The notes under the pieces were generated by a model. That model was given only the letters and a program-made list of their open reading frames with translations, did no database searches and was not told the DNA's origin. A program made the translations under genes and the position numbers. A stretch of 60,000 nucleotides of DNA, from the NCBI GenBank assembly GCA_964187785.1, contig OZ076409.1, positions 76,758,001 to 76,818,000 of the forward strand, read 5' to 3'. Shown here in pieces: positions 792-48,446 of this stretch. The DNA comes from Amphiscolops sp. MND2022. Its lineage: Eukaryota. Position 1 is the first letter of the stretch, and each line of letters opens with the position of its first letter.

Positions 792-1192
792 TGTGATGCC
801 ATGATGCATGTCCTCAAAGACTCTATAAATTTGAAATACTCTGAACTCTTAACCAAACCAATTAGTAAATGTAATCTAATTTAGAAGCTAAGAAACTTCA
901 TTTAATAGATCCTGTATCAAGCTCCCCTGCTTCATCCTGTCGCTGTCACATTGTTAATTGATGTAACCTACCCTAGTTAATAGAATATATCTACTCGGAG
1001 AAATTGAGAATTCATCCTAGCAATCAGTCTTCCTCCCATACTTTAAGAACTGAGAACTCAGAAATAGATTGTACTCAGAACTAGCTAGCTACAAGATAAA
1101 AGATAAGACGACTTCGCTGTTAAAATCTTAGACTTCTTATGTCAGTACTAACACTTCTAAAAGAATCCACCACACAACTTTTTAACAGCTCA
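792..1192 (+). repeat. 5' LTR of element A
   Basis: TGTGATGCC...ACAGCTCA, 401 bp. I count 9 substitutions versus 18291-18691. Confidence 0.97.
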
Positions 1193-1194
1193 AT

Positions 1195-1208
1195 TGGTGC
1201 GACCATGA
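1195..1208 (+). promoter_or_regulatory. Primer binding site of element A
   Basis: TGGTGCGACCATGA begins 2 nt after the LTR end. Element B has TGGTGCGACTTG at the same position. The priming tRNA was not identified. Confidence 0.85.
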
Positions 1209-1339
1209 AAATTCTTTTTTCTCTCCCATTTATTTCACACATCTACAATTGTTGTACCTCTTTCCTCGACTTTCTCATACGCTATCTCTTTGTTCGACAC
1301 ACAGTTTCTCCACCTCTCAACATCGCCTATCGTTACTAA
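1205..1339 (+). CDS. Small leader ORF (44 aa) conserved between elements A and B
   Basis: SFLDFLIRYLFVRHTVSP aligns with DFLNFFNKYIIVRQTISP in ORF 37023-37343. Confidence 0.5.
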   Translation: MKILFSLPFISHIYNCCTSFLDFLIRYLFVRHTVSPPLNIAYRY

Positions 1340-1346
1340 CTTCAAC

Positions 1347-1620
1347 GTTGCAACCAATTTCTATTTGAAATTGGTCCGTGTTGCCATGGTTCTGACTGCG
1401 TTTCTCAACGTAATTCCTGTCAGTCATATTTCTTGGTTCTGACTACGTTTCTTGACGTAATTCCTGTCAGTAAATTTTTCGTTCCAACCACCACTGAGTG
1501 AATTCGTGTTGGCTTTTTCTCTTTCTTCCGTTCCAACCGCAGACGTGCGATACGTGTTGGCCCTTCTACAGTGCTATCCAGCGATACCTGCTAGTAGAAA
1601 TCTCTTTGGTTCTAGCCGCT
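1347..1620 (+). promoter_or_regulatory. Array of 6-7 bulged RNA hairpins in the 5' leader (putative packaging or protein-binding element)
   Basis: Repeated unit GTT-stem1-stem2-loop-stem2'-6-nt bulge-stem1', with different but complementary stems in each copy. Confidence 0.7.
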
Positions 1621-1875
1621 TGGATCAACTTTAAAGTTGGCACACATATTTAGCACATATTTTCTACATAACATTATTATAATACCTTTCTTATTCTCTC
1701 TTTTACAGTACAAACAGCATACAAAACTCTTTTAAAAACTAGTTTACGGATCCAAATACATAACAATTAAAATATATAACACATACCTCACATATTTCTT
1801 TATATAACTTTCATTTTTCATGACCGATATAAAACAAATTTTAATACAACCTCTTGGACACATTCTTCATTGTAC

Positions 1876-1998
1876 ATGCCGCCTTCAGTAGACACTATAG
1901 TTAAACTCATTGTCTGCTTTTGGTTCTTTGTTGCTATCATTGCTGGTCTTGCACTTTTTCTGGACAAATTTTTAATTTCATTCATACCAAAACTTTGA
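1876..1998 (+). CDS. Putative 40-aa single-pass membrane peptide
   Basis: Translates as MPPSVDTIVKLIVCFWFFVAIIAGLALFLDKFLISFIPKL. A polypyrimidine-CAG acceptor-like site precedes it at 1708. A positional counterpart lies at 38821-38934. Confidence 0.35.
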   Translation: MPPSVDTIVKLIVCFWFFVAIIAGLALFLDKFLISFIPKL

Positions 1999-2266
1999 AG
2001 CACAACCGTTTTCTTCTATGTTAACAAGTATAGTACTACCTCTTTTTGGACTACTTAGTATCTACCACACCTTCCATATACGTATTCAATATACACAAAA
2101 CCCATTCCTTCTTTTCATAAGTATTGTACTTACTATTTTCTTACAAGTGGTTTTCATAGATCAAATTTTACCATATAACTCACAATTCAATACAAAATAT
2201 CTTCTTTTCCGATACATCTATCCTTTATAGCAATCTTATTGTACTAATCAAACTTAATATCATATA

Positions 2267-5200
2267 ATGCTCCCCACTCCATTTACAGTCACTACTGACA
2301 AAAGACAAAATCGATCTCTTATACAAGATGTAACACCTTTTCTACAAAACATTATCTTTCAGTACACTAACCCACTTCCATTTGAAACAGAACCCCATAT
2401 ATTACATACTATTCCATTAGTACGAGAACATTGTGATTCTTATCTATATTATATACACTATAAAACACTTGACATTACACCATCACAAATCCCTTTTCAA
2501 GTTATTTTTAACCCTGTTAAAGGAATAAACTCTGGAACATTTTATAGAACTATACACCCAAAAAATATTACACTTTCTATACAAGATGTTTTTCACACAT
2601 ACATGCAAAAACTCATTGAATTCAATGAAAACCAAGACACACCACCTTATTGTCCTTCTCATTTACAAGAACTAAAACACAGATCTGAATATTTCGAGGT
2701 CCCAGATCTTGACACAAAAGTCCAACGACATGATAACCCTCATTATTGGTTACAACGAGATATCTTACAAATAAAACATTTTCAGTACAGATTCTTTACC
2801 AACATTATTCTTACAGATGACACTATACCTCAAGTCAAAATTTTTACACAATTCTTATTAAAGTTTCTTAGATTTAACTATCAACTAATATGGGAACAAA
2901 AAGATCAACAAGCCTATATTAACTTCCCTCAAATATTAACACATATAGAACTCTTACCATACATCATAAAAAATGAAAACAAACATTTACATTACCGAGA
3001 TCTTACTTCACTAAATGTTACACATTTTGAACAAATAACCTTAGATCACAACTTTGTACTTGAACATTCTGAAACATCAGACAAGAGACCTTTCACTACA
3101 CCTGATACTTCTCATGAAACAACTCCTGAAGAACAAACCTCTAGTGTTGAACCTTCATATACAAGACAACAATCAGACCAATCAGAACAAGAATCCCCAG
3201 AACAAGAAGCCCTTACTAATCGTTTTCAAAATCCTGATCTTCCTCAAGAACAACTATCATACCCACCATTATCACAAATCTCAGATATACAACAACCAAA
3301 TCCTTCTGAAACAAATACAATTCACAATACATCAGAACTTTCTGAAGAAACAGTACAAAATACACGAAGTTTTACAATAACCGATGATTCAAATCTTATA
3401 CTAGTTGCTACCCACAATATCACGCAAAATGAATTTACAAACCAAAATCAAGACAACACTTCAAATACAAATCCAGACAATACCTCTATTTTATCTACAT
3501 CTAATACTAACATTACACAACCCTCTCAGACACAAATAATATTTCCTCGAAATTACAATCCACCTTCTGTTCCACCCCAATTCTCAACTCAGATAAACAC
3601 CCATGACATTCCTCAACAAAGCTCATCAAATACACCCTACATTGCACAAAACAATAATATAGTTCATTTTCAAACACCAACTCCACCATTATCTTCTGAA
3701 ATACAAACTTCGAATTTTACTCCAGCTCAAACCAATTCGGTACATTATACACGAACTACCTTAAACATTAACACCATCCATTCTAACCCATCTACAGATT
3801 ATACCACTGCAAGACATCTTTCTCGACCTCCATTACAAACTATATTAACTAATCCATTATCATACAGTCTCACCAGTACTAATCCACGTCATACACAACA
3901 ATCTCAGATAAATTACAATACATCTCACCAATTAAATACTCTTTCTTCTCAACATACATCCAATACAATCACTCCTACATTACAAACTTCTCAATTTCAT
4001 ATACCAAATCCTCCTTCGACAACAATTAGAACTAACCCTCACTTTCATAGTACTTCAACTACTTCTTTACCTAATATTTCCAATAACCCCACATACAATA
4101 CAACACCTCCATCTACTATGTCTCATAACACTATGTCACACCCAACATATATTAATTCTTCTACTTCTATATCAGAACCCATTAAACCTTTTGATGGACT
4201 TGATCACAACTATACACCTGAAGAATATTTACAACATATTGAGGCACGTGTTACATTTTCCTTAGGTTTACAACCTACATCGGAACATGAATATAAATTT
4301 TGGCACGCCCGTCGCATGGCTTTTATACAATGCTCTCTAACAGGCACAGCACTAAGCTGGTACATCCGTTTAAACGACACTTATAAACATGATTGGCACG
4401 CTTTCGTACAAGCTTTCAAAAAACAATTTTCCTCACAAAAGAACGCTTACTATGCTCAAGTTGAAGCCCTTAATTTAACAAAGAAAGACAATGAAACAGT
4501 ACGTCATTTTGCACTCAAAGTTCAACAACTGGTTGAAAAAGGCTGGTGTAATGAGAATGCATCTACTATAAACCTTAAATGTAATGAAATCTTTACAAAA
4601 GGACTTCCAAAAAACCTTAAAGATTTTGCAAATAAAAGACAAGTAAAACACACCTCCACTGTCTTAGGACCTTCAATTCCTTTTCATACCTTGGTAAAAC
4701 TTGTTGACGCTGAAGATATTGCAAACGACAAAATCAGAACACACGATCTTGCACTTGAAATCAATAATATCACAAAACAATTGAACACTCAAACTCTAGA
4801 TCACCCATCTCAAGAACAACTTATGTATACACAACCCAAAGACCCAAATAACAAAAATAAACCTGCATATAAAAAATATTGCTCATACTGTCATAGAACA
4901 AATCACTTCATTTCTGCTTGTTTCAAAAAACAACGAGATGATGAAGATAAACGAGAAGCATATGCTCGATCAAAATCTCCACAAAAATCATTCGTTCAGT
5001 ACTTTCGTTCTCCTTCCAATGACAGAACAAAACACTATGATAATCGATACCGAAGTCGAAGTACTTCACGAGACAACTCTTATAACCAAAAATATTCACA
5101 AAACCGATACCGTTCTACATCTCGAGATAGAGACAGATTTCGTTATGACAAAAGTACTACTCCTCCACACTACTCCAGATCAAGATATGATACATACAAA

Positions 5201-5329
5201 CGTGATTCTCGATCTTACCGTTCTCCTTACAGATCTTCTTATAGATCCCCATATAGACAAAACTCTCGTCCTAGATACAGATCACGCTCCTATTCAAGAG
5301 ATAACAAATTCACCAAATACACAAATTGA
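2267..5329 (+). CDS. gag: Gag region of element A: unknown N-terminal domain, low-complexity linker, capsid, CCHC zinc knuckle, RS-rich tract
   Basis: Retrotransposon capsid-like IKPFDGLD...LTGTALSWY...W..FV..FKKQF; knuckle CSYCHRTNHFISAC. The TGA at 5327 is in frame with downstream pol and is probably a mutation. Confidence 0.9.
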   Translation: MLPTPFTVTTDKRQNRSLIQDVTPFLQNIIFQYTNPLPFETEPHILHTIPLVREHCDSYLYYIHYKTLDITPSQIPFQVIFNPVKGINSGTFYRTIHPKNITLSIQDVFHTYMQKLIEFNENQDTPPYCPSHLQELKHRSEYFEVPDLDTKVQRHDNPHYWLQRDILQIKHFQYRFFTNIILTDDTIPQVKIFTQFLLKFLRFNYQLIWEQKDQQAYINFPQILTHIELLPYIIKNENKHLHYRDLTSLNVTHFEQITLDHNFVLEHSETSDKRPFTTPDTSHETTPEEQTSSVEPSYTRQQSDQSEQESPEQEALTNRFQNPDLPQEQLSYPPLSQISDIQQPNPSETNTIHNTSELSEETVQNTRSFTITDDSNLILVATHNITQNEFTNQNQDNTSNTNPDNTSILSTSNTNITQPSQTQIIFPRNYNPPSVPPQFSTQINTHDIPQQSSSNTPYIAQNNNIVHFQTPTPPLSSEIQTSNFTPAQTNSVHYTRTTLNINTIHSNPSTDYTTARHLSRPPLQTILTNPLSYSLTSTNPRHTQQSQINYNTSHQLNTLSSQHTSNTITPTLQTSQFHIPNPPSTTIRTNPHFHSTSTTSLPNISNNPTYNTTPPSTMSHNTMSHPTYINSSTSISEPIKPFDGLDHNYTPEEYLQHIEARVTFSLGLQPTSEHEYKFWHARRMAFIQCSLTGTALSWYIRLNDTYKHDWHAFVQAFKKQFSSQKNAYYAQVEALNLTKKDNETVRHFALKVQQLVEKGWCNENASTINLKCNEIFTKGLPKNLKDFANKRQVKHTSTVLGPSIPFHTLVKLVDAEDIANDKIRTHDLALEINNITKQLNTQTLDHPSQEQLMYTQPKDPNNKNKPAYKKYCSYCHRTNHFISACFKKQRDDEDKREAYARSKSPQKSFVQYFRSPSNDRTKHYDNRYRSRSTSRDNSYNQKYSQNRYRSTSRDRDRFRYDKSTTPPHYSRSRYDTYKRDSRSYRSPYRSSYRSPYRQNSRPRYRSRSYSRDNKFTKYTN

Positions 5330-8300
5330 TATAGACCACCTTCAAGACCAAGAGATTCTAGATTTTCTAGATCTCGCCCACACTCAAATTCCAGAAATAA
5401 AATCAAAATGATACAACAACAAGACCAAACTGACCCTATCAAATTTGAAGTACACATGTATCACCCAACAGCAATGGCAAATGCTGTCACACCTACAAGT
5501 TGGTTTTATACTCTATATGTACACACCCCATCAAGTATAGTACAAAGAGACAACCCATCTAGATTAGAAATTGCATTCCTCCTAGATAGCGGTGCTTCCA
5601 TTTCTGTACTCAATTACCCAACATACATAACTCTTACAAAACTCCTAGATATTAGATCAAATCACACCTCTGATGTTGGACCAACTCGAAATTCCAAAAC
5701 ATTAACCATTGCAAACCAAACTGAAGTTCCTATTTTACACTACGCAAATATAATCTTGAACACCACTATTGATGAAAACTCTCGTTACTTTTCAGTACTC
5801 TTCGCAGTAGCTGATATCAAATACAACATCCTTGGCACACCATTCTTCGAAGACAATATACAAAACATAAACATACAAGACTTTACACTCGAATTTAAAC
5901 ACCAATCAAAAACACACCCAAATTATACAAAATTCACAACACTCCTATCTAAAGATTATCCATACTTCTCTTACATTTATAGAATTAACTCAAAAACTCA
6001 GATACGTCTAAAACCCAAATCTTCCAAAATTGCAAACTTTCCGATCAAAAATTATCATAACCTTCATTTTACAACCACACCACAAAACCACTTCTTTCCT
6101 TCAGTACCTCATACCTAATTTGCTACCAAATTCCGTACAAATTTCAATTTCATTGAAGTTTTTACAGACGACAAGCCAGATATATGTGCAACTATTATTC
6201 AGAACACTTCAAAACATATTGCAACCCTACCTATTGGACATATTGGATATATTGAAGTTCCAATTACTAATGAAAAACCTAAATTTTTCCAAGTTAACGA
6301 CATTAATACTTTAATACATAACGTTACCTATACTTATCATCCTGATATTACTGAACCACTTCCACAGACCAACTATATTGTACAATATGATGATCCTACA
6401 ACCCCTCCTCCTCAATTCTCTCTACATCAAATTTATATGACAAATAACGATATTCCAAATCAAACTTCTCCTTTATATAACGTTCAGCCTACTTCTCATA
6501 CTTCCGAAAAACGCATTTTCCCTTCTCTCCCATAAACTTCTGAAAATTTGAAATTTATTATTCAATTTAAGGTTTCAATTTGAAATTTGAAACCTCACAG
6601 ATTCAGAATACATTACTCTTTGCAATATGTTACTCAAATATAAAACATGTTATGCAACTCATAAAAACGATGTTGGAAAAATTTCAACACCCTTTCGTAT
6701 AAGACTTAAACCAAATGCTCAACTTATAACACAACGTCCTTCCAAAGTCCCTATTCACTACCGAGACAAACTTAACGTACTTCTCAAAGAACTCGGAAAA
6801 TATAACATTATCAAACAAATTGGTTCTTCTCCTCAAGACAAACCCGTTTATGGCACAACTTATTTAAATCCTCTTATTATAATCCCCAAGGAAGATACAA
6901 TAAAATGTGTATTAGACGCTCGACATCTTAACTCCAATACAGAACAATCTGATGAATCTTGGCCTATTGAACCTCTTGCTCCACAACTAGCACGCGCAAA
7001 TAAAAAGTACAAATCCGCTATTGACCTTATGTAAGCCTATGCACATACACCTCTTGACGAAGAAACTATAAAACTCACTAGTTTCTCCTCCGGAGACAAA
7101 CTTTTCGCATTTATCCGAGGCTTTTATGGTCTCAAAGCACTACCAAACTTCTTTACAAAACAAATGTCTACTTTCTTTAAAACTCTTATAGAACAAGGTT
7201 TCGCTCTTGTCTACATTGACGATATATTACTTTTATCTGATTCTAAAGAACACATGTTTCAACTCATAGAACAATTGCACATTATTAGTACAAAAAACAA
7301 TCTTAAACTAGCCCCTGAAAAATCCTTTTTCATGCTTCTTAAAGTCAAATTCCTTGGACATGAAATTGGTTACAATACAATTAAACCAATCCTTTCAAAA
7401 ACTGCAGCTATTCATAAGATCCCTTCTCCAACTGGCAAAGTTGCCCTAATGAGTTTCATTGGCGCACTCAATTTTTACACCAAATTTATTGAAAAACTAC
7501 ATATCAACCTCAAACCATTTTACGATCTTTTACATGAAAACACTCCTTGGAAATGGACAGACGAACACGAAAGTCTATTCCAAAAACTTAAAATGTCTCT
7601 CACTTCTGAAACAGAATTAACAATACCAAACACAAAACATCCATTTTTTATTACAGTTGACGCTTACCTTATCGGATTAGGCGCTGTCTTATTCCAATTA
7701 AATGAACAAAACAAAATGAAAGTCATATCATACAACTCTCGTATACTTAATCCACAAGAACAAAATTTCTCCACACTTGATAGAGAACTTCTTGGTATAA
7801 TACACGCACTTCAAATCTATGAATTTCTCATCATAGGTTCCCCCCATCCAATACACATTTTCACTGACCACAAACCTTTATTACATTGTTTTACAAAGAA
7901 AGGTAATCTCAGTCCTCGTTTCTATAGAGCTCAAATGCAACTGACAAAATTTTCAAAACTCAAAATAATTCACACGCCTGGAAAAAATCTCTCTGTTGCC
8001 GATATGTTGAGTCGCTCATTCACAAAAGCTGAAATACAACTAAACCAATTAAAACATAAACACCTCCCACCACAAATCGATTTTGCACTTTTACAAGATA
8101 ACACTCTTAAACCTGTACATTACTTAATAAAACATGAAGAAATTTTACCTCATCAAAAACATGACTCTCATCCAATTCTTGCTGGTTATGGTACAGATCA
8201 ATTCTCTATTCGTATCAATGATAAAGAAAATGACATTGTTGTCAAACCGTTACAATCCTTCTCATTCAAATCCATAACTCCTTTTCAAACTAAGTTCAAG

Positions 8301-10472
8301 ACACCTACCAAAAAGAACAACAAAACCCTTCATCAACCATCTCTCTTACTTAATGATACTGACGTTACAAGTGATGACGAAGATCATATTTACACCAGAA
8401 TTCCAAAATCTGACTCTTCCTTCTTACAAGACACAACATTACAAACAGAAAATTATTCTACTCTTAAGCAACCAACTCACAATACCTCACAAAAATCAGT
8501 TTCTGCAATAATTGTACAACCAAATTTACCATCTCTCACACACTGTCAACAAATCGTACCTTTTTATGATACATCAATTTTTAAGTACAAAAACTATTTT
8601 CAAGGTTTCTTCCTTCCCGATGATTACTCATTAGACATAAAAACTCTTCAACAACAACAATCTCAAGATCCGGTTCTTAGAACTGTTTATTCTTGGTTAC
8701 TAAATAATGAAAAACCCGAATTTGTAACACCTCTTATCACTGGTACTCCATTTCTACATGTATATTACAAAAGATTTTCACAACTTTTCATTGACGAATC
8801 CACAAATCTTATTAGTCTATATATTACAAACCCCACTGTTATTAACCAATCCTCTACTCCAAATTTTGTACAAGACACTATTCGTATATGCCTACCTTTC
8901 CGACTGTTTAAAACTGTCTTTAACAAACTCCATGAACACTCTCATACTGGTATGAAAATCACCTACAATACATTCAAACAATATTGCTATATCCCATTCC
9001 TTGAAAAATGGCTTTCCATTTTTATACATGATTGTATTGAATGTCAACGAAACAAACACTTTAATATGAAAATCCAAACTGCTCCCACACAATCTTTTTC
9101 AGAACATGCTCCATCTTTCAACTATCGAATTTCAATGGACACTAAAGGACCTATTAATCCTCCTTCTCGCAACAAATCCTATATACACGTGATAATTGAC
9201 GCTTTTAGTCACTTTGTTGTTACAGTACCCATCAAATCAAACAACGCAAAGACTGCTATCAAAACTCTCCTACACCATTGGATATTTAAATTTGGACCAC
9301 CCATATATCTTGTCACCGATCGTGGATCAGAATATGTTAATAAAGAAATGGCACACCTTTGCACACTTATGGGAATTCGTCATTCTCCTCGAACAGCTTA
9401 TTCTCCTTGGACAAACGGCCTTGTTGAAGTACAAAATAGAAATCTTGGTACCCATTTACGGATGTTCTTACATGACAAACCTAAAGATTGGGCATTCCAA
9501 GTCCATATGTACGCTTATGCACATAATTCACAACCACTTTCAGAACTCAACATTTCACCTCACGAAATTGTTTTCCACACTCGACCCAGAATACCCCTTA
9601 CATTTGATTTGAACCTTAACCGAGACACCTCTAAAACATGTATTTCACGATATTGCTCTCAACTTCCAGTACACTCCCATTATGATAAATCCGATTTAAA
9701 CCCATTTTTCTATAAAACACTTTCAAAACCCATTCCACATTGGTTTCTCGCTGTAGAAACTGCTATGTTACAAATTTATTCTACAGTACACGAAAACACT
9801 CTAAGAAAAATCAATTCACACGCATATATTACAAAAACTTACCATGAAGGTAAACCCCTTCCTATTGGTACCTTTGTTTTAAAACGCAATTTTACCCACG
9901 TTCACTTTTCTGACAAACTAAAACCCCTTCGGACTGGACCATATAAAATTCTTGACAGATTATCAGACGTCACATATGCACTACTTGCACAAGATGGCTC
10001 TACAGTACACGTCCACAGAAATCATTTAATTCCATATTATCCAAAAGAACCACTCTTATATCCACACCTGCGTAGTTTTATGCGCTTTTCAGACACAACT
10101 CAATTTCAAATTCCACAACCTACCAAATATGCAAACATTGATTCTTCTCCTTTTAACTCAGACGAATCGTTGTCAGAAGAAGATTCCCAAACATTTGTAA
10201 CACCATCATCATTTAGTACATCCAATCAGAATACACCATCTATAACATCCAATGACAATTCTTTGACCCCCTCAACCAATGACAACTCCTTATATAGACA
10301 TATAATTAATACCCCTCATACTATTATCTCTAGTGACAGATCAAGACACTCATCTAATAACCAAACCACTTCACTTCCTCCTCTAATTGACAGAACCACA
10401 AAAACTACCTATAAACTACGACAACAACCCAAATTAGATTATAGACTTTTCATTACACCTTCACAACTGTAA
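5330..10472 (+). pseudogene. pol: Pol of element A (aspartic protease, RT, RNase H, integrase), interrupted by stops at ~6116, ~6533, ~7032 and a frameshift at ~6560-6600
   Basis: PR FLLDSGAS; RT VLDARHLN and VYIDDILL; RH ITVDA.LIGLGAVL, RELL, FTDHKPL; IN HEHSHTG...CIEC, ISMD, VTDRG, NGLVE, and GPY module KLKPLRTGPYKI. Confidence 0.95.
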
Positions 10473-10558
10473 TCTAGTCATTCTATCTGTTGGCTCACTC
10501 AAAACTAGTCACTCCGGTTGAATGAAATATAACCCGTAACAAGTTATCTCAAAGATAA

Positions 10559-11796
10559 CCTGTTGAAAACACTTCAACAACCCTGGATCCTCCCTCTGAT
10601 ATATCTCCATCAGCTCCAAGTATTCCTTCCCCACCTGAATCTTCAGTATCTAGCACTACAAACTCTAGTAATGTAACTCCTACTACTCCTTCTAAAAGAC
10701 CAAGATCATACATCTCTGAAACTACCTCTTCCTCACTTCTTCACAGACCACCTATAACTGAAATTCCTATAAACACTCGTCCCCAACAAACTCCTATTAA
10801 CACTCCTATTATACACATACCAAACCCTGAAAGTGTTGAACAATACGTAACATACAAACATCCTACAGCTATCAAAACTGTTAGACTCCAACCTCAACTT
10901 AATCTTGTACAAATCCCTGATACTGAATATACAAAGCTACCTCCACTAAAATTACCTTCAGAACTTAGCACTACTCCTTCAAAACTTTATCCACCATTAA
11001 AACCTCTTCGAAAACCCTCTACATCACTCTCGAATCTCTTAGACAATAATACTTCAGACTACGCTCCATCACAAGACACAAGCTCACTTTTTGTACCTAA
11101 ACATAGATATAATCTTCGTGACCTTCACGTAGACTTAGTACAGACACTTCAACACTCAATTTTTCGACTCTTTCTAGCAATTCTGCATTACGACTTGTAC
11201 GACAACACGCTCAACCATTGTCCTCTGACACACCATCTTCAGAACTCTTTCAATCTCCTTGTTTTACTTCTGGTTTTGAAACCGCTTCAATACTCTCATC
11301 TAACCCACAGACTGCATTTCTATCAGAAGATCTCTTTCCACAAGTAGTAATCCCTACTCCTGTTCCTGCACATATTAGACTGCCCGAATACTATACTGCA
11401 GAACACTCTAGACCTCCAACTCCAAATTTTGCTGACTATCCACTTAGAGTCGATGGTATAACCATCTACGACCCACAAAACGATCCCCGATTTCCAATTC
11501 TTGCAGAACGTTTTATTAACAATAACGACCTCTTATCTCACAAACGCAAAGAAACAGAACTAAAACGCCTTCAGACATCAAATCTAGAACTTAAATTTGA
11601 AGTCAAAGTTATATTTCAAGGATTAAATCCACACACAATATTTCACGTTTCTAAGATAGAACATAAAACCTCTCCTGCTCCTTTCGAAGTAGTACATATT
11701 GAATTTGAACGCGATCTTAATATACCCACTATCACATATAGCAATATTGTCTTCTGTAACCCATATTCCGGTCTTAAATATACAACATCTTTTTAA
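10559..11796 (+). pseudogene. ORF-X: Pro/Ser/Thr-rich N-part with PSAP and LYPxL motifs plus conserved C-terminal domain (matrix/budding-like, unknown family); one frameshift near 11120
   Basis: An open frame from 10559 contains SPSAP (PSAP at 10607-10618), LYPPL (10985-10999) and RYNLR. The C-part (ORF 11218-11796) aligns with 47920-48444 (TSGFETAS, RFINN, LKFEV, NPYSGL.Y). Start codon not identified. Confidence 0.75.
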
Positions 11797-14446
11797 ACCC
11801 TATACAACCTTTTACATAACAACTCTAATTCTTTATTTACATTTATTTAACTCTACCTCTTCCATACCCATAACACCCTCTGACACTGACAACTATCTTC
11901 CATCGGATGACCCGAATATTACAAATCTCATGGTTTCTCATTATGACTGTGCAAAACAACACAATCTGAGACAATTTAATTTACTCAATGTAAAACAATG
12001 CACTGAAGCTCCTTCCGACATTAAACATGCAAGTGTTAAAGCCCGTGTATATGTCCGAGCAAAAGCTAAACGCATCAAAGCTTTTAAATGTGTTGCTTAT
12101 GCAAAAAAAGAAAGAAAAATATGCTTTCAAGGTTCCGTAAAACACCGTCGTGTTGATAGAACCGTATGGAATCATAATACATTACCGCTCCCTGTTACTC
12201 TTGATCCAGCAGAATGTAAAAACATTATACGACATTAAAATGGTACAAATAATAAAATACTGAATAACCTTCAATACAACAAAACCTTTACACTCTTAGA
12301 AGACCATTATTTTCAAGAACGTTTAGAACAATATCAAACTCCTTTCACTGTATATCAACTGAACAAAATGTATACAGGTACATTTACATTTATGCCTGCT
12401 GATAAAAACTGGATATATGACCCTACAAAAAACCCTTACCATAACTGTCCTGCTCATCATCAATTCGAAGTCAACTTAGTTAGTTGGCTACTAGAAGTTT
12501 CTGAAGTAGAACTTACATATGATGACACATCAAATGACATGATAATTGATGGACATACATTACCCTGCTATTTTGCAGATGGCTTCTGTAAACCCACTAC
12601 AAAAACTCCTTTTACTCTTGTTCGGTTTAATGATGATTATTGTCTAATTTTTACCCTACAAGACTTTATTGGACGTATGACTAAAATTGAAGATAGATAT
12701 TGGATTGAAACAGACTCTTTTGTACATTCTCCACATCCAATAAAATCTAAAACAGCTTCTGGCATAAAAGGTACAGAACACCCCTATGTTTATGCTCCTC
12801 ATACACAACACCCAAATAATCCAAGTCTTTCAAGGTTTGAAGTTTTCCCTACAGCACAAACCTTCTGTGGTAAACCAGACCCTCTTTATTCTACACAATA
12901 ATCAGACCTTTTTGTTACATACACTGATGGTTTCAATATGCATACAGGACAACCTAATCCTCATTCCATAATTGATGAATATATTTCTGGTAAAATAGTA
13001 TTGGACACTTCAAATAACAAATTTGTATTTCCTGCATTAAATGTATCAAACAATTTTGCTACCATTGATTATGATGCACATGTAAACACCAAAATCGATT
13101 ATACTATTAATCATGTCTTCCGATCAATGACAGTACAAGAACTAAATACTCTTCATACAATATGTGAACTAGAACGAAATCAACTCCTTACAATACTCGC
13201 AATGTCAGTACAAAACCCTCAACTTGCTGGTTTCCTTTTAACTGGTAATAGAAGTAACTTCTTATACGTTGAAGGCTCAACCGCCTGGCTTTATGACTGT
13301 CCTCATTTTTTATCTCCTTTATACAAAGCAGATAGATGCTTTGACCGTATACCCATACATTTTAAAGAAACCTTAATGTACGTTGATCCTATTACAAGAC
13401 AAACTTATGATTATGCTACACCAATTACATGCGATAATAATCCACGTAACATTATTGAACTAGATCTTGATTCAGACGATCAAGACTTTTACATTCTTGG
13501 ACCTGAACCTATCAAACGCAAACCTCCACTAATGTTTACACCCTCACAAATCAAAACTACAATACGCCCTAATACTTTTACAGCCCAAGATGCTGGTATA
13601 TATTCAAATGCAGAACTTGATCAATTTTGGAACCGTATTTTATTTTCTAAACATTCTGATTCTACACTCCAATTACTAGGCAAAGCTCTTAGTTATTCCT
13701 TCATTTCATCTAATACTCCAAATTACGATGCAGATTCCCCTCAAGATTCTGGTAATCCTTACAATACATTACGCATAGGACTCCATGATAAACTCTTGAA
13801 TTTAACTCCTCTTTTTACACCTACATGGTTTTCAGATGCTTTTATTGCACTTTTTGGATACCCTTGTTACATTCTCACACAATGTGGTATATACTTTTCT
13901 ACATTTCTTTTCGTACAAGCTACTCTTACACTCATTAAAAAACTGTACAAAACAATATCTATTAAATATAATCTCAAAAATAATATTACTTTACTTAGTT
14001 CTATAGCACATGGTTTTTTTAATGTTCTTACAGCACGAATGGTCAGTGACCTCCATGAGACTCAAAACAAAAAACCCAAAAGTACACTTTTAAAATCCAA
14101 ATCCTTAGATAATTTTATTGACACTTCTCCAAATTTAATTAACCATTCTACCGATGTTACTTCCCCTCCACCTTTCTATACTAAACGACCTAACAAAATT
14201 CAATTTCCTAAATTTAACTTCTTTCCGAAACGACACCACAATTCTCACCATAAAACGACTCCACTTCCTTTCTCTCCTGTTCAACATCCTACACTTCCTA
14301 ATTATACTCATAAAAACTTTCACTCGAATGACAATCTAACTACTCAACATGACACTTTAATTAACAATCCTGTCACTTCTACTACGGATACACCAATTAA
14401 AATTTATTCGCGGATAAACTATCCTTTTCCTCCTCCATCTTCTTGA
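11792..14446 (+). pseudogene. env: Envelope glycoprotein, class III fusion-protein-like (chuvirus G / herpes gB type), two premature stops
   Basis: ORFs 11699, 12368 and 12938 share one frame. Signal-like hydrophobic stretch, HYDC...NLLNVKQC, CELER.QL..ILAM...NP.LAG, CFDRIPI...YVDPITR...C, N-glycosylation sequons, C-terminal TM (ILTQCGIYFSTFLFVQATLTLI), long tail. Confidence 0.85.
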
Positions 14447-14705
14447 ACACTCTCTCAGTTTTTCTGTAACTCTCTTTCAGTACACTTGCCTACTATTTCT
14501 TCACAATTGCTACTCCTCCACCACTCGAAACTCTTGCAGAAGTTCATCTTCCTCAGCCCAATAATACTTTAATAATAACCGTCTTTAAAAACTCTCAACT
14601 AAAGTTGACAAATCCACTCGTTAGTGTAATTTATAGTACTTTAACTTTAAAGTGCTAAGGCCTCTTGGAATAGATAACACTGTGATTGTTGATGTTTTTA
14701 AAACA

Positions 14706-16033
14706 ATGACACAAGCACAAATTGACCTACAAACACAGCTTGAACAAGCAACCCCAACAGAACTAATAACTAGACCTCTTTCAAATGATTCTCCTGTTCT
14801 CTATATTGAGACTTCAGAACAAACACCTCCAACTTTTCTTGAACCAATGGAACACACAAAAGTTGAAAATGAAAATCCAAAACCTACTCCTTCACAAGAT
14901 GATACTGATCATACACAATCGACACCACCTCCTCCCAAAAAACGATATGAAATAATGAAAGATCCAATCTTTCTTTCATCACCAATATATCCTCCTTCAA
15001 TACCTTCAAAAATTTCACTTTGCACGAATCGCGATGATCATTTGATCTCAATTCTTTCTACTGACGATTTCGTCTTCAAAGCACAACTAACTTCTCTATA
15101 TATGCATCCTACTGACTATTCATTTCGCTTATATGACAAAAATCAAGACTTCTTCACATCCATTGCTTCCAAAATAATGGGTCCATACCAATATTGGCTC
15201 GAGAATGGAGTTAAAATTTTCTCTCTCCAATTCAATTTTCTTCGACCTTCTATATACGATCTCAAAACAGATGAATCTGATCCATCCTTTCTCTCTATAG
15301 CACAAAAAGCTACTCATCATCAGACATATACTAAATTCCTGCAATACACGAAACCACAAAATCATATTTTTGTCAATTACAAATATACATCACCGTTCAC
15401 AATGACAAATATGTACACTCTGGACCACTCCTGTATAACAGGCTACCTTCGGAACTATGACCCTATAAAACAATACTTCTGTTTACTCCCATATAACAAT
15501 ACTTCACGTCCACCTATTGTACCTCAAGAATATCTCATACATTACAATGATTTTTTGTTGCCCTGCAACATTCCTACTCAAATTGCAAAACCTCTTACTG
15601 TTATTAAACACCTCGTTTCTTCTCCACTTGACGATAAAGATAGAACGTACTATACAGTTTCTACAAGCAAACGTATTCATACAATGAATTCCTCTTTATC
15701 TCTGCCAAAACTATCTCTTTCATGGTACAAGCTGAACAAAAAACTGAACATAAATCACACGCTTCACCTATAAAAAACGCTCCTCACAAACTTTCTTCTG
15801 TATTAAACAACCGAACACTTCGCGACATAACAAATTTACTTGAACCCTATAAACGAAACTCCTCTTAAACACCTATCACAACACTCACACCTATACTACA
15901 CTGCTACGACAGAACACACAAACTCCTTCAGACACTCGATTTAGACTCTCAACGCATCACTCAATCATCCCAAGCAATCCAATCTGCTTTGGAAACTATA
16001 ACTACTCTTTTTAACTCAACTAATCTTCATTAA
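14706..16033 (+). pseudogene. ORF4: conserved accessory protein of unknown function (frameshift ~15670, stop ~15866)
   Basis: Aligns with 51038-52310 (LTS.YM.PT.Y.F, TSIASK, LRNYDP.KQ.F, RP.IVPQEYLI, YSY.E..FIS). Confidence 0.75.
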
Positions 16034-16451
16034 AATCTTCTACAGGTAATATAAAGTTCTTAATTTTTCTTCTATGGTACACCCTATGATACATCTGTGA
16101 CACATCCTTCAAGGTATTTTCATTTTTACCTACTTATTTAAGGTAAATTCTTGCTTTTGAATAAAATCTCAGGACTATTTTTCAAGTACACTAATTTTTC
16201 CTACAGTACATGTCGTAAAATTAACTATTTCTATTAAAAACACTACAATACAAGACATACAAGACAATATAGCACAACACTACATATGATACATTAAAGC
16301 ACCCAATTTTGTTGTACATCTTTGACTTGATATTGTCATTCTTCTTACACTTCCTTTGTTTTAGAAACATCCATTCTTCTTCCTCCTCCTTCCATTCTCT
16401 TTCAGAACATCTCCACTTCTCCTTTTTCGTCTTCTACAGGACTCTCTCGTC

Positions 16452-16904
16452 ATGGCCCCCAACGCTGAAATACAAGATATAATTACAATGATTTCCAGCC
16501 ACTCAAAAGTTGATAGCCTAAAAGCAGCTATTTTTCACACAATGGCCTACAAACTTTCCCTGGAAATAAACAACAATAAAATAACGCCAAAATCTCTTAT
16601 CGCCTTTCTGAAAGTCTTATATAATGTCACCCAAATCAAAAAGAAACACATTACATTTGAACAATATTCAAGGATTCATGTCGCCGGACCAAAAATTGCC
16701 ATTCGTGAAACGGCTTCTAATGTCGTTTTTGTGTTAAACTCGGCGTTCACGTCTAAAGACCAATACTTTCAAGCTGCCTTCCACGAAGCCACCAACGCAT
16801 TCAACGAGATGCTTCATAGTTTTGGATATACCCAGAAACTCGAACACTATGATCCTCACCAACATCAGGCACATCCACCTCAACAACATCCTCTATACAA
16901 CTAA
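16452..16904 (+). CDS. ORF5: 150-aa accessory protein of unknown function
   Basis: Intact ATG ORF in good context (GTCATGG) directly after a polypyrimidine tract plus CAG (16437-16439). Weak similarity ITFEQYSRIH to INFDQYLKLH at ~53030 in element B. Confidence 0.55.
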   Translation: MAPNAEIQDIITMISSHSKVDSLKAAIFHTMAYKLSLEINNNKITPKSLIAFLKVLYNVTQIKKKHITFEQYSRIHVAGPKIAIRETASNVVFVLNSAFTSKDQYFQAAFHEATNAFNEMLHSFGYTQKLEHYDPHQHQAHPPQQHPLYN

Positions 16905-17110
16905 AACAATATTCTACTTACTTTATCACTCTTCAACTCCATCTCTTCTTGAATCCGTCATTCTTCCTCAATGATGTTTGAGATGTAGCTGTCGCTCACT
17001 CCTTCAAAGAACTCCTACACATGCTGAAACTCTTCAATTCACCCATTCACGATGGTCAACAACATACATCTCCATTTTGGGTTCATCGACGTTGCCAAAC
17101 TTTGTCCTCG

Positions 17111-17225
17111 TCACTGGTCTTCACACTCCACGATGACTTCTTGACTGGTCTTCACACTTCAAATGCTGACTTCTTGACTGGTCTTCACACTTCAACTGCT
17201 GACTTCTTGACTGGTCTTCATACTC
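17111..17225 (+). repeat. 33-bp tandem repeat (~3.5 copies) in the 3' region of element A
   Basis: GACTTCTTGACTGGTCTTCACACTTCAACTGCT repeated. Confidence 0.9.
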
Positions 17226-18290
17226 CAATGGCCAATACAAATTTCAAACTGAACTGTATAATCAAATTTAACAAATATACCTTGTAACTCCTTGTAACCT
17301 ATCAAATTCTAACTTCCATATAGTATAGTGCTATATACTCTTATCTAATCTTTAGTGCTATATACTCTTATTTAATCTTAATCTCCTCTAATCGTAGTAT
17401 AATTACCCCTCCATTAAAAATAATCCTTCCCAAATTCTACCTATAATTATCCTTGTAACCACAATAGTATCTACTTCCATTGTATTGTGTATAGTACATT
17501 GACATTATCTTACCTAATTATAAACTCCAAAAATAAATCTCTAATCCCCATCTTTTACAGAACACAAGTCCTACCTACAGTACAAGAAATTTTCTAAGAT
17601 TTTTGAACAAAAATTTTTCTTTAACAAAACATGTTCTACACTTTTGTTTTAATCCCCAAAAGCATTCCCAAACAATTTTCCAAATTTTTCTTTAAAACTC
17701 TTAACAACTGTCACTTCTAGTTTTCCAATGTTTGAAACTTGAAATAGCCAAAGTTTTTTTCAACTCTTGCTTCTGCTCTACTATTCACTTTTGTTGAAAA
17801 TGAACTCTCACTCGAACCTTGACTTTTCGAAACTTCTTCACTTTTGGTTCACATACCCGCCAATGTTGGTTCACAACTCATTGACAACTTCACGCTTTAA
17901 TTCTTCAACTTGAAAAGTTTTCAATGCTGACTAACTCATGTTGATGAAGAATTTTTTCAAACAAGCCGATGGCTGATACGAAAAAGAAACATGAAATGAT
18001 AAATAGTTGTCAACAATAACTTCAAAGAACTTGTCAGTCAAAGAAACTGAAAGAACTTGAACCTTGCTTGAACCTTTTTGCACCAATTGAATCGTCTATG
18101 ACGTAATGACGTAAGAAGTCAAATCGTTTTAGGTTGTTCTCACTCCTTAAGTATGGTACTCTACAAAACAAAACTCATGCAACTCTAGTACAACACAAAT
18201 GAAACAAACCCATGCATATAACAAAAACTTCTAGAACTCCTCGAACCCAAACTGCATATATGTAATTTAATTTTTAAATTCCCGGTTGAT

Positions 18291-18691
18291 TGTGATGCCA
18301 TGATGCATGTCCTCAAAGATTCTATAAATTTGAAATACTCTGAACTCCTAACCAAACCAATTAGTAAATGTAATCTAATTTAGAATCTAAGAAACTTCAT
18401 TTAATAGATCCTGTATCAAGCTCCCCTGCTTCATCCTGTTGCTGTCACATTGTTAATTGATGTAATCTACCCTAGTTAATAGAATATATCTACTCGGAGA
18501 AATTGAGAATTCATCCTAGCAACCAGTCTTCCTCCCATACTTCAAGAACTGAGATCTCAGAAATAGATTGTACTCAGAACTAGCTAGCTACAAGATAAAA
18601 GATAAGACGACTTCGCTGTTAAAATCTTAGACTTCTTATGTCAGTACTAACACTTCTAAAAGAAACCACCACACAACTTTTTAACAGCTCA
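18291..18691 (+). repeat. 3' LTR of element A
   Basis: Direct repeat of 792-1192, followed by TSD TTCA. Confidence 0.97.
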
Positions 18692-19869
18692 TTCATCCTA
18701 TGCAATTTCAACCTATGCAATTTCAACCTAGGCAATTTCAACCGTTGCCATTTCAACTGCTCACAATTTCAACCTATTGCATTTTCAACCGTCCGCCAAT
18801 TCGACCTAAACTAATTTTGGCTAATGGATATTAATTAGTTGATAATTGTTTTAATGGTTTCAACTTTCATACATTTCTACTTTCAAAGGTGCTGATTATT
18901 ACGCCAGTTTTGATGTGTTTTGGCTTCTTCATGAATAATTACCAACAATTAAGGCTGTTTGATTCATTAGTAATTATTATACTGAAATAATAGCTCAACC
19001 GAATTAAAACTAAATAGCCGAAATTAGTTTAGGTCGAAATTGAGGACGGCTGAAAATTCAATAGGTTGAAATTGTGAGCGGTTGAAATCGCAACGGTTGA
19101 AATTGCATAGGTTGAAAGCGTATTGGACGAAATGTCATGTAACCTCAGAAACAAATATTTTCCACAGTATATACTGATTAACAAAAACCTTGAGCAAGAG
19201 AAACGCAGCGCAAAACGTCGGAGTCTTCATTATGTTCGGGAAAATTTCACTACCGAGACTCGTAATATTGGATGTCTGAACTAAAAATAAGCTTTTAGAA
19301 AAAATCAATGTCAAAATGGAAGAATGCTTTCAACGAGTTGAGAGATGGATTAAGTCATCGTGTATTGAAAGATTTCATACCGCAAAAGTTTCATTCATAT
19401 AGTTTTTATCCATTTTTCTATACAGGATAAAGCATACCAAAAACTTTGCTGTGCGAAAGTGCCGCAACTTCAAAGCTGTAACTTTGAAAGAACGAAACTT
19501 TCGCACTGCAAAATATTTTTACTCTGTGAATTTTCCAATTTCTCCTGAACGAACTCGCTGGTAATTTCCCGCAGAAATGAATCCCCTCCGGACAATTGGG
19601 AGGCAAAGAAACTTACATTCCGCCATTTTGCCACCACCTGTTGAAATATATCGATGATTCCGTCCTCACGCATTCTCGGGTTTTTTGCTCACGAGAAATC
19701 AAAAAAGTAAAAGATAATATACCCCATGTTTGTATTATGAATTTTCATGAAAATATGTCTGGTTGAAGTCGTTCAACATAATTTTTAATGAGCTCCACAG
19801 ATGCTTTAGTTAGGCTAGCCAAACTGTTTTAGTTTCGCACACCTTGATACAGGAGTCCCTTGGAATTGC

Positions 19870-20489
19870 ATTTTTAGTCGGCGCATTTTCCTTTAAGAAA
19901 AAAAGCCCGACTATTACAGTGGCTAGTTTTTTTTTCTTTTTTTTTCGTCAGACCACAGAGCTCATCGCGTATGTACCACTTTTTACAGAAACTGATAAGT
20001 TCACTCAGGCCAAGTTCGACCAAAGCAAACTTACTGCAAAGGGTCCCCCCTTTCGTTTTTTACCTTTTTTACGTAACCTACAAAACCGGAAGACTCCCTT
20101 TCAATTTTTTTCGGCACTGTGCGAATTTTTTTTCGAAAATTTTTAATTTTTCCAAAGAATCCCCCCTTCGGATTTTTTGATATTTTGCAACAGAAAGTAT
20201 GTTAATGAATCCCAAAGGGTCCCCCCTTTTCATTTTTCGGCACTATGCGACGTTTTCGTAGTTTTTTTCAAAAAAAATTTTCCAAAAATTTTTCAAAAAA
20301 TTTTCAAAGTTTTTTTGTTTCCAGTCGGGAAAAGTGATTTTCCAGTCATATCGAGCATGAAAGGCACACTTTGGGTGTCTCGAAAGTGTTTTCAAAGCTT
20401 TTCATGAATACATCCTGGGCATATTTAGAAAACTTTGAGCTTTTTGAGCCTTAGATATAGCGCCGACTTTAGACGTTCCCGTCTTGTTT
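19870..20489 (-). repeat. Second, inverted copy of the 121-607 repeat family
   Basis: The reverse complement of the right end reads AAACAAGACGGGAACGTCTAAAGTCGGCGCTATATCTAAGGCTCAAAAA. It shares the AAGGGGGGACCCTT internal motifs and AGTCGGCGC at the other end. Confidence 0.65.
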
Positions 20490-20490
20490 A

Positions 20491-20560
20491 GTATGGTGTA
20501 GTAGTTAGAGCATACGGCTCGCACTGGGATGGTATCAGGTTCGATTCTCTCTCAACTCAC
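20491..20560 (+). repeat. tRNA-derived (SINE-like) head
   Basis: A-box-like TGGTGTAGTAG and B-box GGTTCGATTC (20538-20547); no complete cloverleaf. Confidence 0.45.
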
Positions 20561-20965
20561 TATTGTTGGGCTTTAAGCAAGTCCTTCATTCATAGCCCAG
20601 TTGTGTATGGTCAATGACAAAAAATAACGCATGGCGGAGAAAAGCAAAAGAAAAAGAGCAACGGTGATCAGTCAGACCTTTGTGACGTTGAGCTAGTTCA
20701 AGTCATCCATTGCTTGACCATTTATTTGGCTGCAAATATGGAACCATAGTATTCGAATGGGCGCCGATTTAGAAAAGCAGCACTGCTTATTCGTTGTCCA
20801 CCCAACGGAATTGGACAAATTAACTTCTCTTTTTCCCTCTTTGAGCTTTGAGATGATTTTTGAATTATATTGCACCATTATGTTACCCCGCTATCCACGA
20901 TATCGATTACATACCTCAGAAAACACAGTTCTAACTACAACTTGACTTCTACAAACTGTTAAAAC

Positions 20966-21427
20966 GATTACCAGAAAACTCAATACAAGAAAACTCAACA
21001 CAAGAAAACTCAACACAGAAAACTCAACACAAGAAAACTCAACACAGAAAACTCAACACAAGAAAACTCAACACAGAAAACTCAACACAAGAAAACTCAA
21101 CACACGAAAACTCAACACAGAAAACGCAACACATTTTAAGCATTTAATAGTCGGGATATATCTTTCACATGTAAATTCCTTGTTCTTACTGCTCCTATTT
21201 TATGCATTTGACACAATCTTTAGAGGTAAAGGAAATTATACGGCTTTATATGTGTTTGAAATGACTCGCAATTGTCACGAAGTGTAAACAGAAATTAGAC
21301 GGGTTTAACAATTAGTTAGATTTCGGAAATTAAACTCAAATGAGGTGTTAACTAAAATTTAATAAATGTGTTCAAATGTGTTGAGTTTTCTCTGTCAAGT
21401 TTCCTTGTGTCGAATTTTCCGTACCCC
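20966..21427. mobile_element. Foldback/MITE-type element with tandem-repeat TIRs
   Basis: (AGAAAACTCAACACA)n at 20972-21133 mirrored by TGTGTTGAGTTTTC-type units at 21377-21427; flanking direct repeat GTTAAAAC (20958-20965, 21428-21435). Confidence 0.75.
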
Positions 21428-22221: not shown

Positions 22222-23064
22222 CCCAGTGTAAAATATCTTGAAACTCTTGCCAAGATCTTGGATTTTCCGGCAAATTCCCGTTACCTCCTGAAAGCCTTGA
22301 TAAGATCTTGAATTATCTTGGAAAGATAAAAAAATCTTGAAATTCTTCAGAAGAATCTTGGCAAGATTCTTGTCAAGAAATCCGGGAAGTGAAAACTGCA
22401 TTTAGCATTTTATTCATGATAATTCTGTGATAATTTATGCATTTCATCAATTACCAACCAGGAGCGTTTGCATGGAACAAATTTTGTTTATAATAAAATT
22501 TCCAGCTAAAATCCGGAAAAATATCAAATATGAAATCAGGGAAACTTTCCAAAAGTATTTTGGGACCAAATTGTTGAATCAGATTTATAACGTTGTAATA
22601 ATACAAAACAAAGTTTAGTACCAATTGACATATCGTCTCTTTTAGACGCGGAACTGCAGTATACTAACACAGTATACTAATTTCAGTTCCCCAATTCTCT
22701 ATGTAAGTCGTGCTTAACAGCATTACTTTTACCAAAATAAATGAAAAATTGAGGCCTTTGCATGCAATTCCATGATCACCTATTAGTCTCCTTCTTTTTG
22801 CCGCTTATTCCTGGATGTTCCCGGATTTCTTGCCACGATTCTTGGGTTTTCTTGGATTTCTCGAAGATTCTTGGAATTTCTTGGATTTCTTGACAAGATT
22901 CTTGGTTTTTCCTGAGGAGTTTTGTTGTACCAAAAACCCTTTGTGTGGGCTTTCTCAGTCGAACAAATTGGGTATTTTTCTTGAAGTTCTTGTCAAGATT
23001 CTTACCAAGGGTTTCAGGAAATGCTAAGATTCTTGGTAAGAGTTTCAAGATATGTTACACTGGG
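22222..23064. mobile_element. Non-autonomous DNA transposon, CCC...GGG termini, 2-bp TSD (CMC/EnSpm-like)
   Basis: TIR CCCAGTGTAAAATATCTTGAAACTCTT / AAGAGTTTCAAGATATGTTACACTGGG; TT on both sides; subterminal CAAGA(T)TCTTG repeats. Confidence 0.8.
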
Positions 23065-36704: not shown

Positions 36705-36982
36705 TGTACTGACCTACATTAATAACCAATAGTATTTAGATGTTCGTAGAATGTTCTAGAATGTACATTTATTTATTTTTGAATGACTGTAAAACTCTTC
36801 TCCTTCAGAGAGAGAAAACTAATAACCAGTATTTGGTCGACTTCCTTTTTGCTCTACTTCTACCATCTCATAGCTAGCTAGCCAGACCTCGACGCAGCCT
36901 TTCTTAGTAAGCCTTTAAGTAGCCACCTCCACCTTTCAATAAAATAAAAGGCAAACACCCAACAACTATTTATGGCAGCACA
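36705..36982 (+). repeat. 5' LTR of element B
   Basis: TGTACT...GGCAGCACA, 278 bp; about 10 substitutions plus 1 indel versus 54030-54308; AATAAA near the 3' end. Confidence 0.97.
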
Positions 36983-36985
36983 ATT

Positions 36986-36998
36986 TGGTGCGACTTGT
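36986..36998 (+). promoter_or_regulatory. Primer binding site of element B
   Basis: TGGTGCGACTTGT begins 3 nt after the LTR end. Confidence 0.85.
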
Positions 36999-37022
36999 AA
37001 AAATTTTTCTTTTCACAACTGA

Positions 37023-37343
37023 ATGCTTTCTCTTCTCTCAACAATAATACAACTACCACTCCTCATTTTTGAAATTCTTTGGGATTGCAGTGAAAATTTT
37101 CTGAATTTCCTTGAAGACTTGACCTGTGACTTTCTGAATTTCTTCAATAAATACATCATTGTTCGACAAACAATTTCTCCAATACAAACATCACTTGAAA
37201 TATACCAAATTTCTTCACCGCCGGTTTATCACGTTCTCCAACATGTTGACACGGTTCTTCTTCTTCTGCTTCTCTTGCCTTGCCGGTTTATCACGTTTTC
37301 TAACACGTTGACACGGTTCTTCTTCAGACTGAATTATCCGTAG
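37023..37343 (+). CDS. Leader ORF homologous to 1205-1339
   Basis: Shared FL(D/N)F..(R/K)Y..VR.T(V/I)SP motif; the 3' half overlaps the hairpin array. Confidence 0.45.
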   Translation: MLSLLSTIIQLPLLIFEILWDCSENFLNFLEDLTCDFLNFFNKYIIVRQTISPIQTSLEIYQISSPPVYHVLQHVDTVLLLLLLLPCRFITFSNTLTRFFFRLNYP

Positions 37344-38934: not shown

Positions 38935-38935
38935 A

Positions 38936-48444: not shown

Positions 48445-48446
48445 CG

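Follow-up and report, generated by a model that had tools for sequence, protein, structure and literature searches.

A selected array of bulged hairpins in the leader of an env-carrying Ty3/gypsy element of Amphiscolops: a candidate genome-selection signal

Introduction

In the MS2/PP7 coat-operator and HBV epsilon-P systems, a bulged hairpin near the 5' end of the RNA is read by the virus's own protein, packaging is coupled to translational shut-off, and recognition is orthogonal between relatives. These signals are single-copy, and epsilon also primes reverse transcription.

In HIV-1 as well as HIV-2, the packaging signal (psi) is a structured leader between the primer site and gag with several Gag-binding stem-loops, placed downstream of the major splice donor in HIV-1 but not in HIV-2, as described in the available part of PMC9142903; the packaging signal of MMTV is likewise a structured leader region with Gag-binding stem-loops (PMC8096270, available part). 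According to the accessible portion of PMC4974528, the self-selection of RNA by LTR retrotransposons is poorly defined, even for Ty1 and Ty3. The env-carrying Ty3/gypsy elements with an HSV/gB-type Env have been surveyed as 'ancient errantiviruses' (PMC13524379); the accessible text states that the survey retained regions of at most 10 kb and LTR distances no greater than 14 kb, and the supplements list 1512 elements, which may include relatives of the element described here.

We analysed a window of 60,000 nucleotides from Amphiscolops sp. MND2022 (contig OZ076409.1, positions 76,758,001 to 76,818,000); all coordinates below are those of the window, on its forward strand. The leader of one LTR element in it, element A, carries a real, selected array of RNA motifs, a variant of the retroelement leader signal that has no earlier match. 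We found no description of such leader arrays in the literature searched, most subscription journals and Repbase lying outside its coverage.

The host element

Element A spans 17.9 kb (792–18691). Its 401-bp LTRs (792–1192 and 18291–18691) are 97% alike, have TG..CA ends and are bordered by a 4-bp target-site duplication (788–791 and 18692–18695). Judged from the sequence, it is an env-carrying Ty3/gypsy element, as indicated by the LTR termini, the 4-bp duplication, gag, the order RT-RNase H-integrase, and env downstream. Troyka, which has CG..CG termini and a 3-bp duplication according to the available part of PMC12440569, was rejected as its identity on account of the TG..CA termini and the 4-bp duplication.

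Families A, B, and D–H have the primer-binding site (1195–1203) in common. The gag frame (2267–5329) encodes 1020 aa, with a 270-aa N-terminal domain (2267–3076), a low-complexity linker, a capsid domain (PF03732), one CCHC knuckle (4880–4921), and an RS-rich basic tail. Stops interrupt both pro-pol (RT, RNase H, and integrase; 5330–10472) and env (11693–14446) in this copy, the latter matching the Monjiviricetes fusion glycoprotein family PF24664 (E 5e-21). Three further ORFs were found. The pol-env ORF (11122–11796), between pol and env, is 38% identical to its family D counterpart and had no Pfam match. ORF4 (14706–15773), shortened near its 3' end in this copy, is common to families A, B, and D (41–51%) and gave neither a Pfam match nor a usable ESM Atlas match. 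ORF5 (150 aa; 16452–16904) lies downstream of a GT-AG intron (16046–16364), had no match at the Pfam cut-off, and was not detected in families B or D. The 3' non-coding region contains four tandem repeats of 31–33 nt (17103–17232).

Element A has the gag, pol, env order of the 'ancient errantiviruses', with the integrase after RT/RNase H and a chuvirus/gB-like Env (PF24664), as these are described in the accessible part of PMC13524379. It differs from them in the Gag N-terminal domain, the upstream peptides, ORF4/ORF5, and the leader array, and at 17.9 kb it exceeds the size limits given there. The main text of that survey contained, for the terms searched, no passage on leader RNA structure.

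A related element, element B, lies at about 36705–54274. Searches of the 1.07-Gb assembly with primer-site patterns gave 1828 A-type matches and 1168 B-type matches, the B-type figure including some double counts; other primer-site variants yielded just decayed A/B copies or chance matches. At several loci, copies of the leader follow one another at intervals of about 2 kb (e.g., G000:C13:49375638-49380704, with L008, L026, and L029). The window also contains several MITE-like elements with long inverted ends and 14–15-nt internal tandem repeats (116–406, 18692–19138, 20094–20494, 20944–21422, 22222–23064, and 59041–59490).

Anatomy of the array

A sequence-only reading of this DNA had described an array of bulged hairpins in the leader of element A, and the units were found where it had placed them. 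Six units, five full and a sixth degenerate, were parsed at 1347–1594, between the primer site (1195) and gag (2267), which are approximately 1070 nt apart. The array begins 155 nt past the end of the LTR and ends 670 nt before gag. It does not extend to 1620, as had been supposed: it stops at 1594, and 1595–1642 is a separate conserved block. A small hairpin at 1623–1642 closes the region, with the same arms in family B and subfamily C; it was not found in family D. Upstream of the array, a conserved block at 1290–1299 is exact in family B and has two mismatches in subfamily C.

Each unit consists of GTT, a 5-bp stem1, stem2 with its loop, a 6-nt bulge on the 3' side, and the closing strand of stem1. 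The five full units were parsed at 1347–1384, 1389–1423, 1436–1470, 1481–1512, and 1530–1560. Unit 1 (1346–1384) has a long stem2. Units 2 (1388–1423) and 3 (1435–1470) have a CTGAC-type stem1, unit 2 with G at position -4 and C at bulge position 5. Units 4 (1480–1512) and 5 (1529–1560) are of the CCAAC type; unit 4 has C at -4, G at bulge position 5, a 3-bp stem2, and one extra A, and unit 5 has a GACG loop and an inner hairpin that is kept across subfamilies. Unit 6 (1571–1594), with one mismatch in stem1 and a 1-bp stem2, is degenerate yet conserved across subfamilies, and its 3' arm has an alternative partner, CTAGC, shortly downstream. The units start 41–49 nt apart and are joined by linkers that are 87% pyrimidine. 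The bulge consensus proposed earlier, RTHCST, needs correcting at the first position: the G of unit 1 is private to this copy and absent from 29 of 29 other copies, and the other five units begin the bulge with A.

The sequence UACUAAC precedes unit 1 (1334–1340), and UACUAAU is found inside every family D unit (L236 array); both resemble the branch-point or STAR-protein motif.

A TAR-type element sits at the very 5' end of the transcript. A TATA-like box, recognized from the sequence, as is the presumed start site, lies at about 823–829, and the array is approximately 500 nt downstream of it; the TAR-like role suggested earlier therefore fits poorly.

The resemblance to psi of HIV-1/HIV-2 and MMTV consists in a structured leader from the primer site to gag with several stem-loops. 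The known psi elements, however, combine different stem-loops with exposed purines, whereas in element A one unit recurs 5–7 times, the loops vary freely, conservation falls on a pyrimidine-rich bulge or junction, and a major donor was not found upstream. In contrast to the HIV-1 sites covered in the available part of PMC9142903, the motif leaves few guanosines exposed.

Chance, folding energy, and database matches

When 1340–1600 was scanned for structure only, with no motif supplied, five units were recovered, a number reached by 0 of 1000 dinucleotide shuffles (maximum three). Across the whole genome, the unit pattern gave 9042 matches versus 7 for the reversed control. The folding energy of the whole region was modest (z = -1.58). 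With the pair span limited to at most 60 nt, units 2, 3, and 5 folded as drawn (p 0.80–0.89), and units 1, 4, and 6 did so at p ≤0.05. Without this limit, in a 527-nt context, cross-pairing between the repeats won and every unit had p ≤0.28 for the drawn form; unit 1 of a sister copy, folded alone, adopted it at p 0.97. The repeats would have to be kept in register by a protein or by tertiary contacts. The Rfam 15 covariance models gave no match at the gathering score: the best E values were 7.8 for A and 1.2 for D, and B, C, and one A subfamily had no match at E ≤1.

Selection on the motif across copies

Since copies decay at random after insertion, changes private to one copy served as a neutral control, and changes common to several copies were taken to have passed through replication. 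The A-clade sample comprised 116 distinct arrays, 73 of them of the window's length, of which the 61 with at least 84% identity were analysed; an allele was regarded as shared when it occurred in three or more copies, and the core was defined as flank, stem1, and bulge. Split into shared and singleton alleles, the core gave 3/40, stem2 gave 7/29, and loops together with linkers gave 29/29 (Fisher p=3e-6), and two of the three shared core changes hit the variable third bulge position. In family B (27 of 41 distinct arrays, kept by length), the core had 1/42 versus 35/47 (p=3e-7); both p-values are indicative, because shared alleles are not independent of subfamily structure. These results support purifying selection on the repeated motif.

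A functionless hairpin that was duplicated in tandem under neutrality would account for the ready change in unit number (3–9 per array in the A-clade, as parsed) and for the two-copy tandem duplications that are also present in the leaders of families E and F. This explanation is largely refuted by the finding that inherited variants avoid the core while private ones strike it at an ordinary rate, and we give it next to no credence.

Subfamilies that are 70–85% identical in the leader keep the same corner of flank, stem1, and bulge, with loops that differ in length and sequence, as does subfamily C, in which the Gag N-terminal domain is just 57% identical. The corner is the same in 45 recurrent variants despite 37 different inner hairpins, and of 30 copies sampled solely by their primer site, 29 had 4–6 strictly matching units. 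In the 26 variants seen in at least three loci, all 208 scored pairs were Watson-Crick or G-U, compared with 88 broken pairs of 1456 in the 182 singletons. The covariation of the stems claimed earlier appears real but shallow: judged by the 45 recurrent variants, compensatory change in A goes back to few independent events (three stem1 types and four stem2 types), and the two bulge-adjacent stem1 pairs are invariant. Conservation at the level of structure, as expected of a retroviral-type psi, is thus found, with compensation from few independent events.

The claim of selection on RNA structure holds insofar as the repeated motif is selected, as judged by inherited versus private variants, by the motif's persistence in diverged subfamilies, and by the variation in unit number (3–9); the variant test itself is blind to whether the function resides in DNA or RNA. 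The leader of Drosophila gypsy carries Su(Hw) repeats, and the array, at the same leader position and with several arms that are short palindromes, could likewise be a set of transcription-factor or insulator sites acting at the DNA level. Against this, the conserved halves are split by inserts of 12–19 nt that have nothing but self-complementarity in common; sense-strand G-U variants recur in both A and D (the recurrent A pairs include four G-U and no A-C, a thin indication of strand); and the three-way junctions of D show compensatory change. We consider a DNA-level role highly improbable.

Potential pairing between flank and bulge

In 494 of 516 units (C-G in 293 and G-C in 201) and in 43 of 45 recurrent variants, bulge position 5 and the base 4 nt before stem1 were complements of each other. 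An invariant G and C adjoin this pair, so that a 2-bp pseudoknot, with the GUU flank laid along stem1, might form in A units. The pseudoknot is put forward as a hypothesis because the swap at -4/bulge-5 falls exactly where the two unit types part, i.e., is one evolutionary event, and because no compensated double change occurred in genome-wide units with a changed bulge position among the variants listed (100 of 131; 84/84).

Such a 2-bp pairing of the 5' flank beside a 5-bp stem would be similar to PK1 of the flavivirus subclass 1a xrRNAs (PMC8571300, accessible part), with which the array also shares the occurrence in tandem copies; 1–2 bp between the 5' flank and a junction strand beside a 5-bp first helix would be a further, putative likeness. 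Tandem compact pseudoknots could accordingly block 5'-3' decay and leave decapped, leader-truncated RNAs. The A units, however, are two-way bulges with freely varying loops, located in a retroelement 5' leader; they have no third helix, three-way junction, or loop-to-downstream pseudoknot (PK2), the loss of which abolishes xrRNA resistance according to the available part of PMC8571300. Units of B and D lack this topology, and the single-event swap with no compensated double change among the variants listed also counts against decay resistance, which strikes us as a very remote prospect.

Sister families and the Gag N-terminal domain

Two points go beyond the sequence-only reading: at this position sister families have arrays of other shapes, and the list of candidate binders gains the long N-terminal domain of Gag. 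The array of element B (37221–37546), at the homologous leader position and flanked by the same two conserved blocks as that of element A, has seven units, each with a 3-bp outer stem, an asymmetric internal loop, and a variable inner hairpin. Family D was found via a Pol 61% identical to that of A; in 12 of 12 copies, 4–6 units directly follow the primer site. Sixty-one of the 62 D units fold as three-way junctions; 24 carry one third-stem sequence and 38 its double compensatory swap, and a G-U variant is present in 11 of the 62.

The more distant families E–H share the primer site and env with A, but their Gags are short (367–464 aa). No array was seen in their leaders, in which any 11-mer occurred at most twice and one of which is only 39 nt long (a crude measure, on one copy per family). 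The env of E–H (L249, L250, L251, and L252) is also gB/chuvirus-like. In E and H, env is followed by other, unassigned ORFs; in F and G, small ORFs lie in the interval from pol to env. In the leaders of H (L230/L231) and E (L220/L221), several long hairpins are present, either non-repeated or repeated twice.

The Gag tree, rooted at its midpoint, groups A, B, and D in a single clade (100/100). The N-terminal domain of approximately 270 aa is found in these three families only (36–41% identical) and is absent from E–H. ORF4 and the pol-env ORF were likewise not detected in the examined stretches of E–H, the pol-env ORF having been compared for A and D only. The co-occurrence of array and N-terminal domain is a single evolutionary event, and the same is true of ORF4 and the pol-env ORF; hence it offers no choice between Gag and ORF4.

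The N-terminal domain is not basic (23 K+R versus 29 D+E). Its predicted model (pLDDT 77.6, pTM 0.74) had no Foldseek match at E ≤0.001 in PDB or BFVD, and the ESM Atlas gave no usable match; the best VIA match had Z 5.2 (rmsd 4.3, 114 aligned), mostly over residues 103–239. By this model, the domain appears to lack a clear fold match, from which neither a new nor a known fold follows. Among cluster representatives, 585 relatives were found at E ≤0.001, some apparently from other genomes. Two distant proteins with this domain, P0293 and P0270, have best matches of 36–55% in this genome, i.e., no close match, and therefore other genomes hold relatives; no relative with DNA context was confirmed in metagenome and viral contigs.

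Splicing, upstream ORFs, and alternative roles of the leader

One genomic copy (L149, G000:C13) lacks exactly the GT-AG interval 16046–16364, and this precise intron loss shows that sense transcripts of the family are made, spliced, and reverse-transcribed. Other strong sites resembling donors are present at 16143, 9850, and 7903. Scanning 792–2270 of this copy revealed no splice donor scoring ≥5.5, and candidate donors were present in the LTR of five of the seven other A-clade copies scanned. No strong donor thus precedes the array in this copy, so that a restriction of the array to unspliced RNA would be conjectural. We rejected the deletions in L009 and L146 as splice events, and no clear non-autonomous derivatives that would delimit a minimal cis region were found among 148 loci.

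In an element that splices, the array could be an RRE/RxRE-like element on which ORF4, the pol-env ORF, or ORF5 oligomerizes to export, stabilize, or localize the intron-containing genomic RNA. It shares with Rev/RRE and Rex/RxRE a multi-site structured RNA and accessory ORFs in a spliced retroelement, and Rev works by cooperative multi-site binding (PMC9142903, available part). ORF4 and the pol-env ORF go with the array-bearing families, and natural ORF4 copies end in a stretch that reads as helical and coiled-coil-like. The known RRE, however, is situated in env and forms a single branched structure with a single high-affinity site, as described in the same portion of PMC9142903, whereas the array adjoins the primer site and no Rev-like arginine-rich protein was identified in element A. 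No arginine-rich motif is evident in ORF4 (44 K+R versus 46 D+E) or ORF5, the pol-env ORF is not notably basic, and ORF5 was not found in B or D. The predicted model of ORF4 (pLDDT 35.7) was unusable. We regard an export role as unlikely.

The leader also contains small upstream ORFs. The first of them (1876–1998) encodes a 40-aa hydrophobic peptide with homologues in A subfamilies and a look-alike in family D, with which it has an LDKF motif in common. Two or three such hydrophobic ORFs precede gag in A (1876–1998 and from 2018), D (leaders of L236 and L243), and F (L225), and one in B (about 38821–38934). These peptides could be small accessory proteins of the membrane.

The two or three upstream ORFs in A and D, the ~1070 nt from primer site to gag, and the pyrimidine-rich linkers would suit a translation-control element bound by host factors, through which ribosomes reach gag past the upstream ORFs by internal entry or shunting. 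Yet 670 nt separate the end of the array from gag, family F lacks an array despite its two upstream ORFs, and three unrelated shapes in sister families would be easier to reconcile with an element protein that co-evolves fast than with a conserved host factor. A role in translation is in our view distinctly unlikely.

A proposed genome-selection signal

The array is most likely a multivalent protein-binding site, as the sequence-only reading also proposed. That this site is a family-specific, Gag-binding genome-selection signal is a proposal to which we give even chances. The array would act in cis in the genomic RNA of the element, as 5–7 copies of one small fold held approximately 45 nt apart on pyrimidine linkers, so that several copies of an element-encoded protein bind together. 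This partner would most likely be Gag, through the family-specific N-terminal domain and/or the CCHC-RS nucleocapsid, which, bound cooperatively, would nucleate the assembly of capsids on RNA of its own family and probably withdraw that RNA from translation. The feature recognized would be the invariant corner, i.e., the GUU flank, the two bulge-adjacent stem1 pairs, and the AUHCSU bulge, perhaps with the 2-bp pseudoknot, and loops and linkers would be spacers.

The corner is fixed and the loops are free, the spacing is regular, the copy number varies, and each sister family has its own shape; this anatomy appears to fit an element protein that co-evolves fast and binds by avidity better than it fits a host factor or a DNA site. 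We rank Gag-led genome selection above the export role because the array (1347–1594) lies, as does a retroviral-type psi, in the leader between the primer site and gag. Several observations speak against the proposal: the N-terminal domain is not basic, folding is energetically weak and in long context loses out to cross-pairing of the repeats, independent compensatory changes are few, array and domain are linked by a single event in which ORF4 and the pol-env ORF share equally, this copy has no strong donor upstream of the array, and few guanosines are exposed. By analogy, the array would be psi-like in its working, and we call it a candidate psi only. It differs from HBV epsilon in that element A has a tRNA primer site and the array is multi-copy.

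It is also conceivable, although we would sooner doubt than assert it, that the co-resident giant families are kept apart by an orthogonal code, in which the Gag N-terminal domain reads a family-specific fold in a multi-copy array (a bulge pseudoknot in A, an internal loop in B, and a three-way junction in D).

Implications

With splicing, accessory ORFs, and putative small membrane peptides, these elements resemble complex retroviruses. The candidate signal is modular, with less than 40 nt per unit, and exists in three natural alternatives with matching protein variants, so its specificity is accessible to a simple cross-binding matrix. If the orthogonal code were true, it would comprise an RNA-binding domain and a mini-pseudoknot motif, both new, together with a natural set of protein-RNA pairs that exclude one another. 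Orthogonality of these pairs would explain how several abundant families persist in one genome without cross-packaging, and could yield pairs for RNA tagging.
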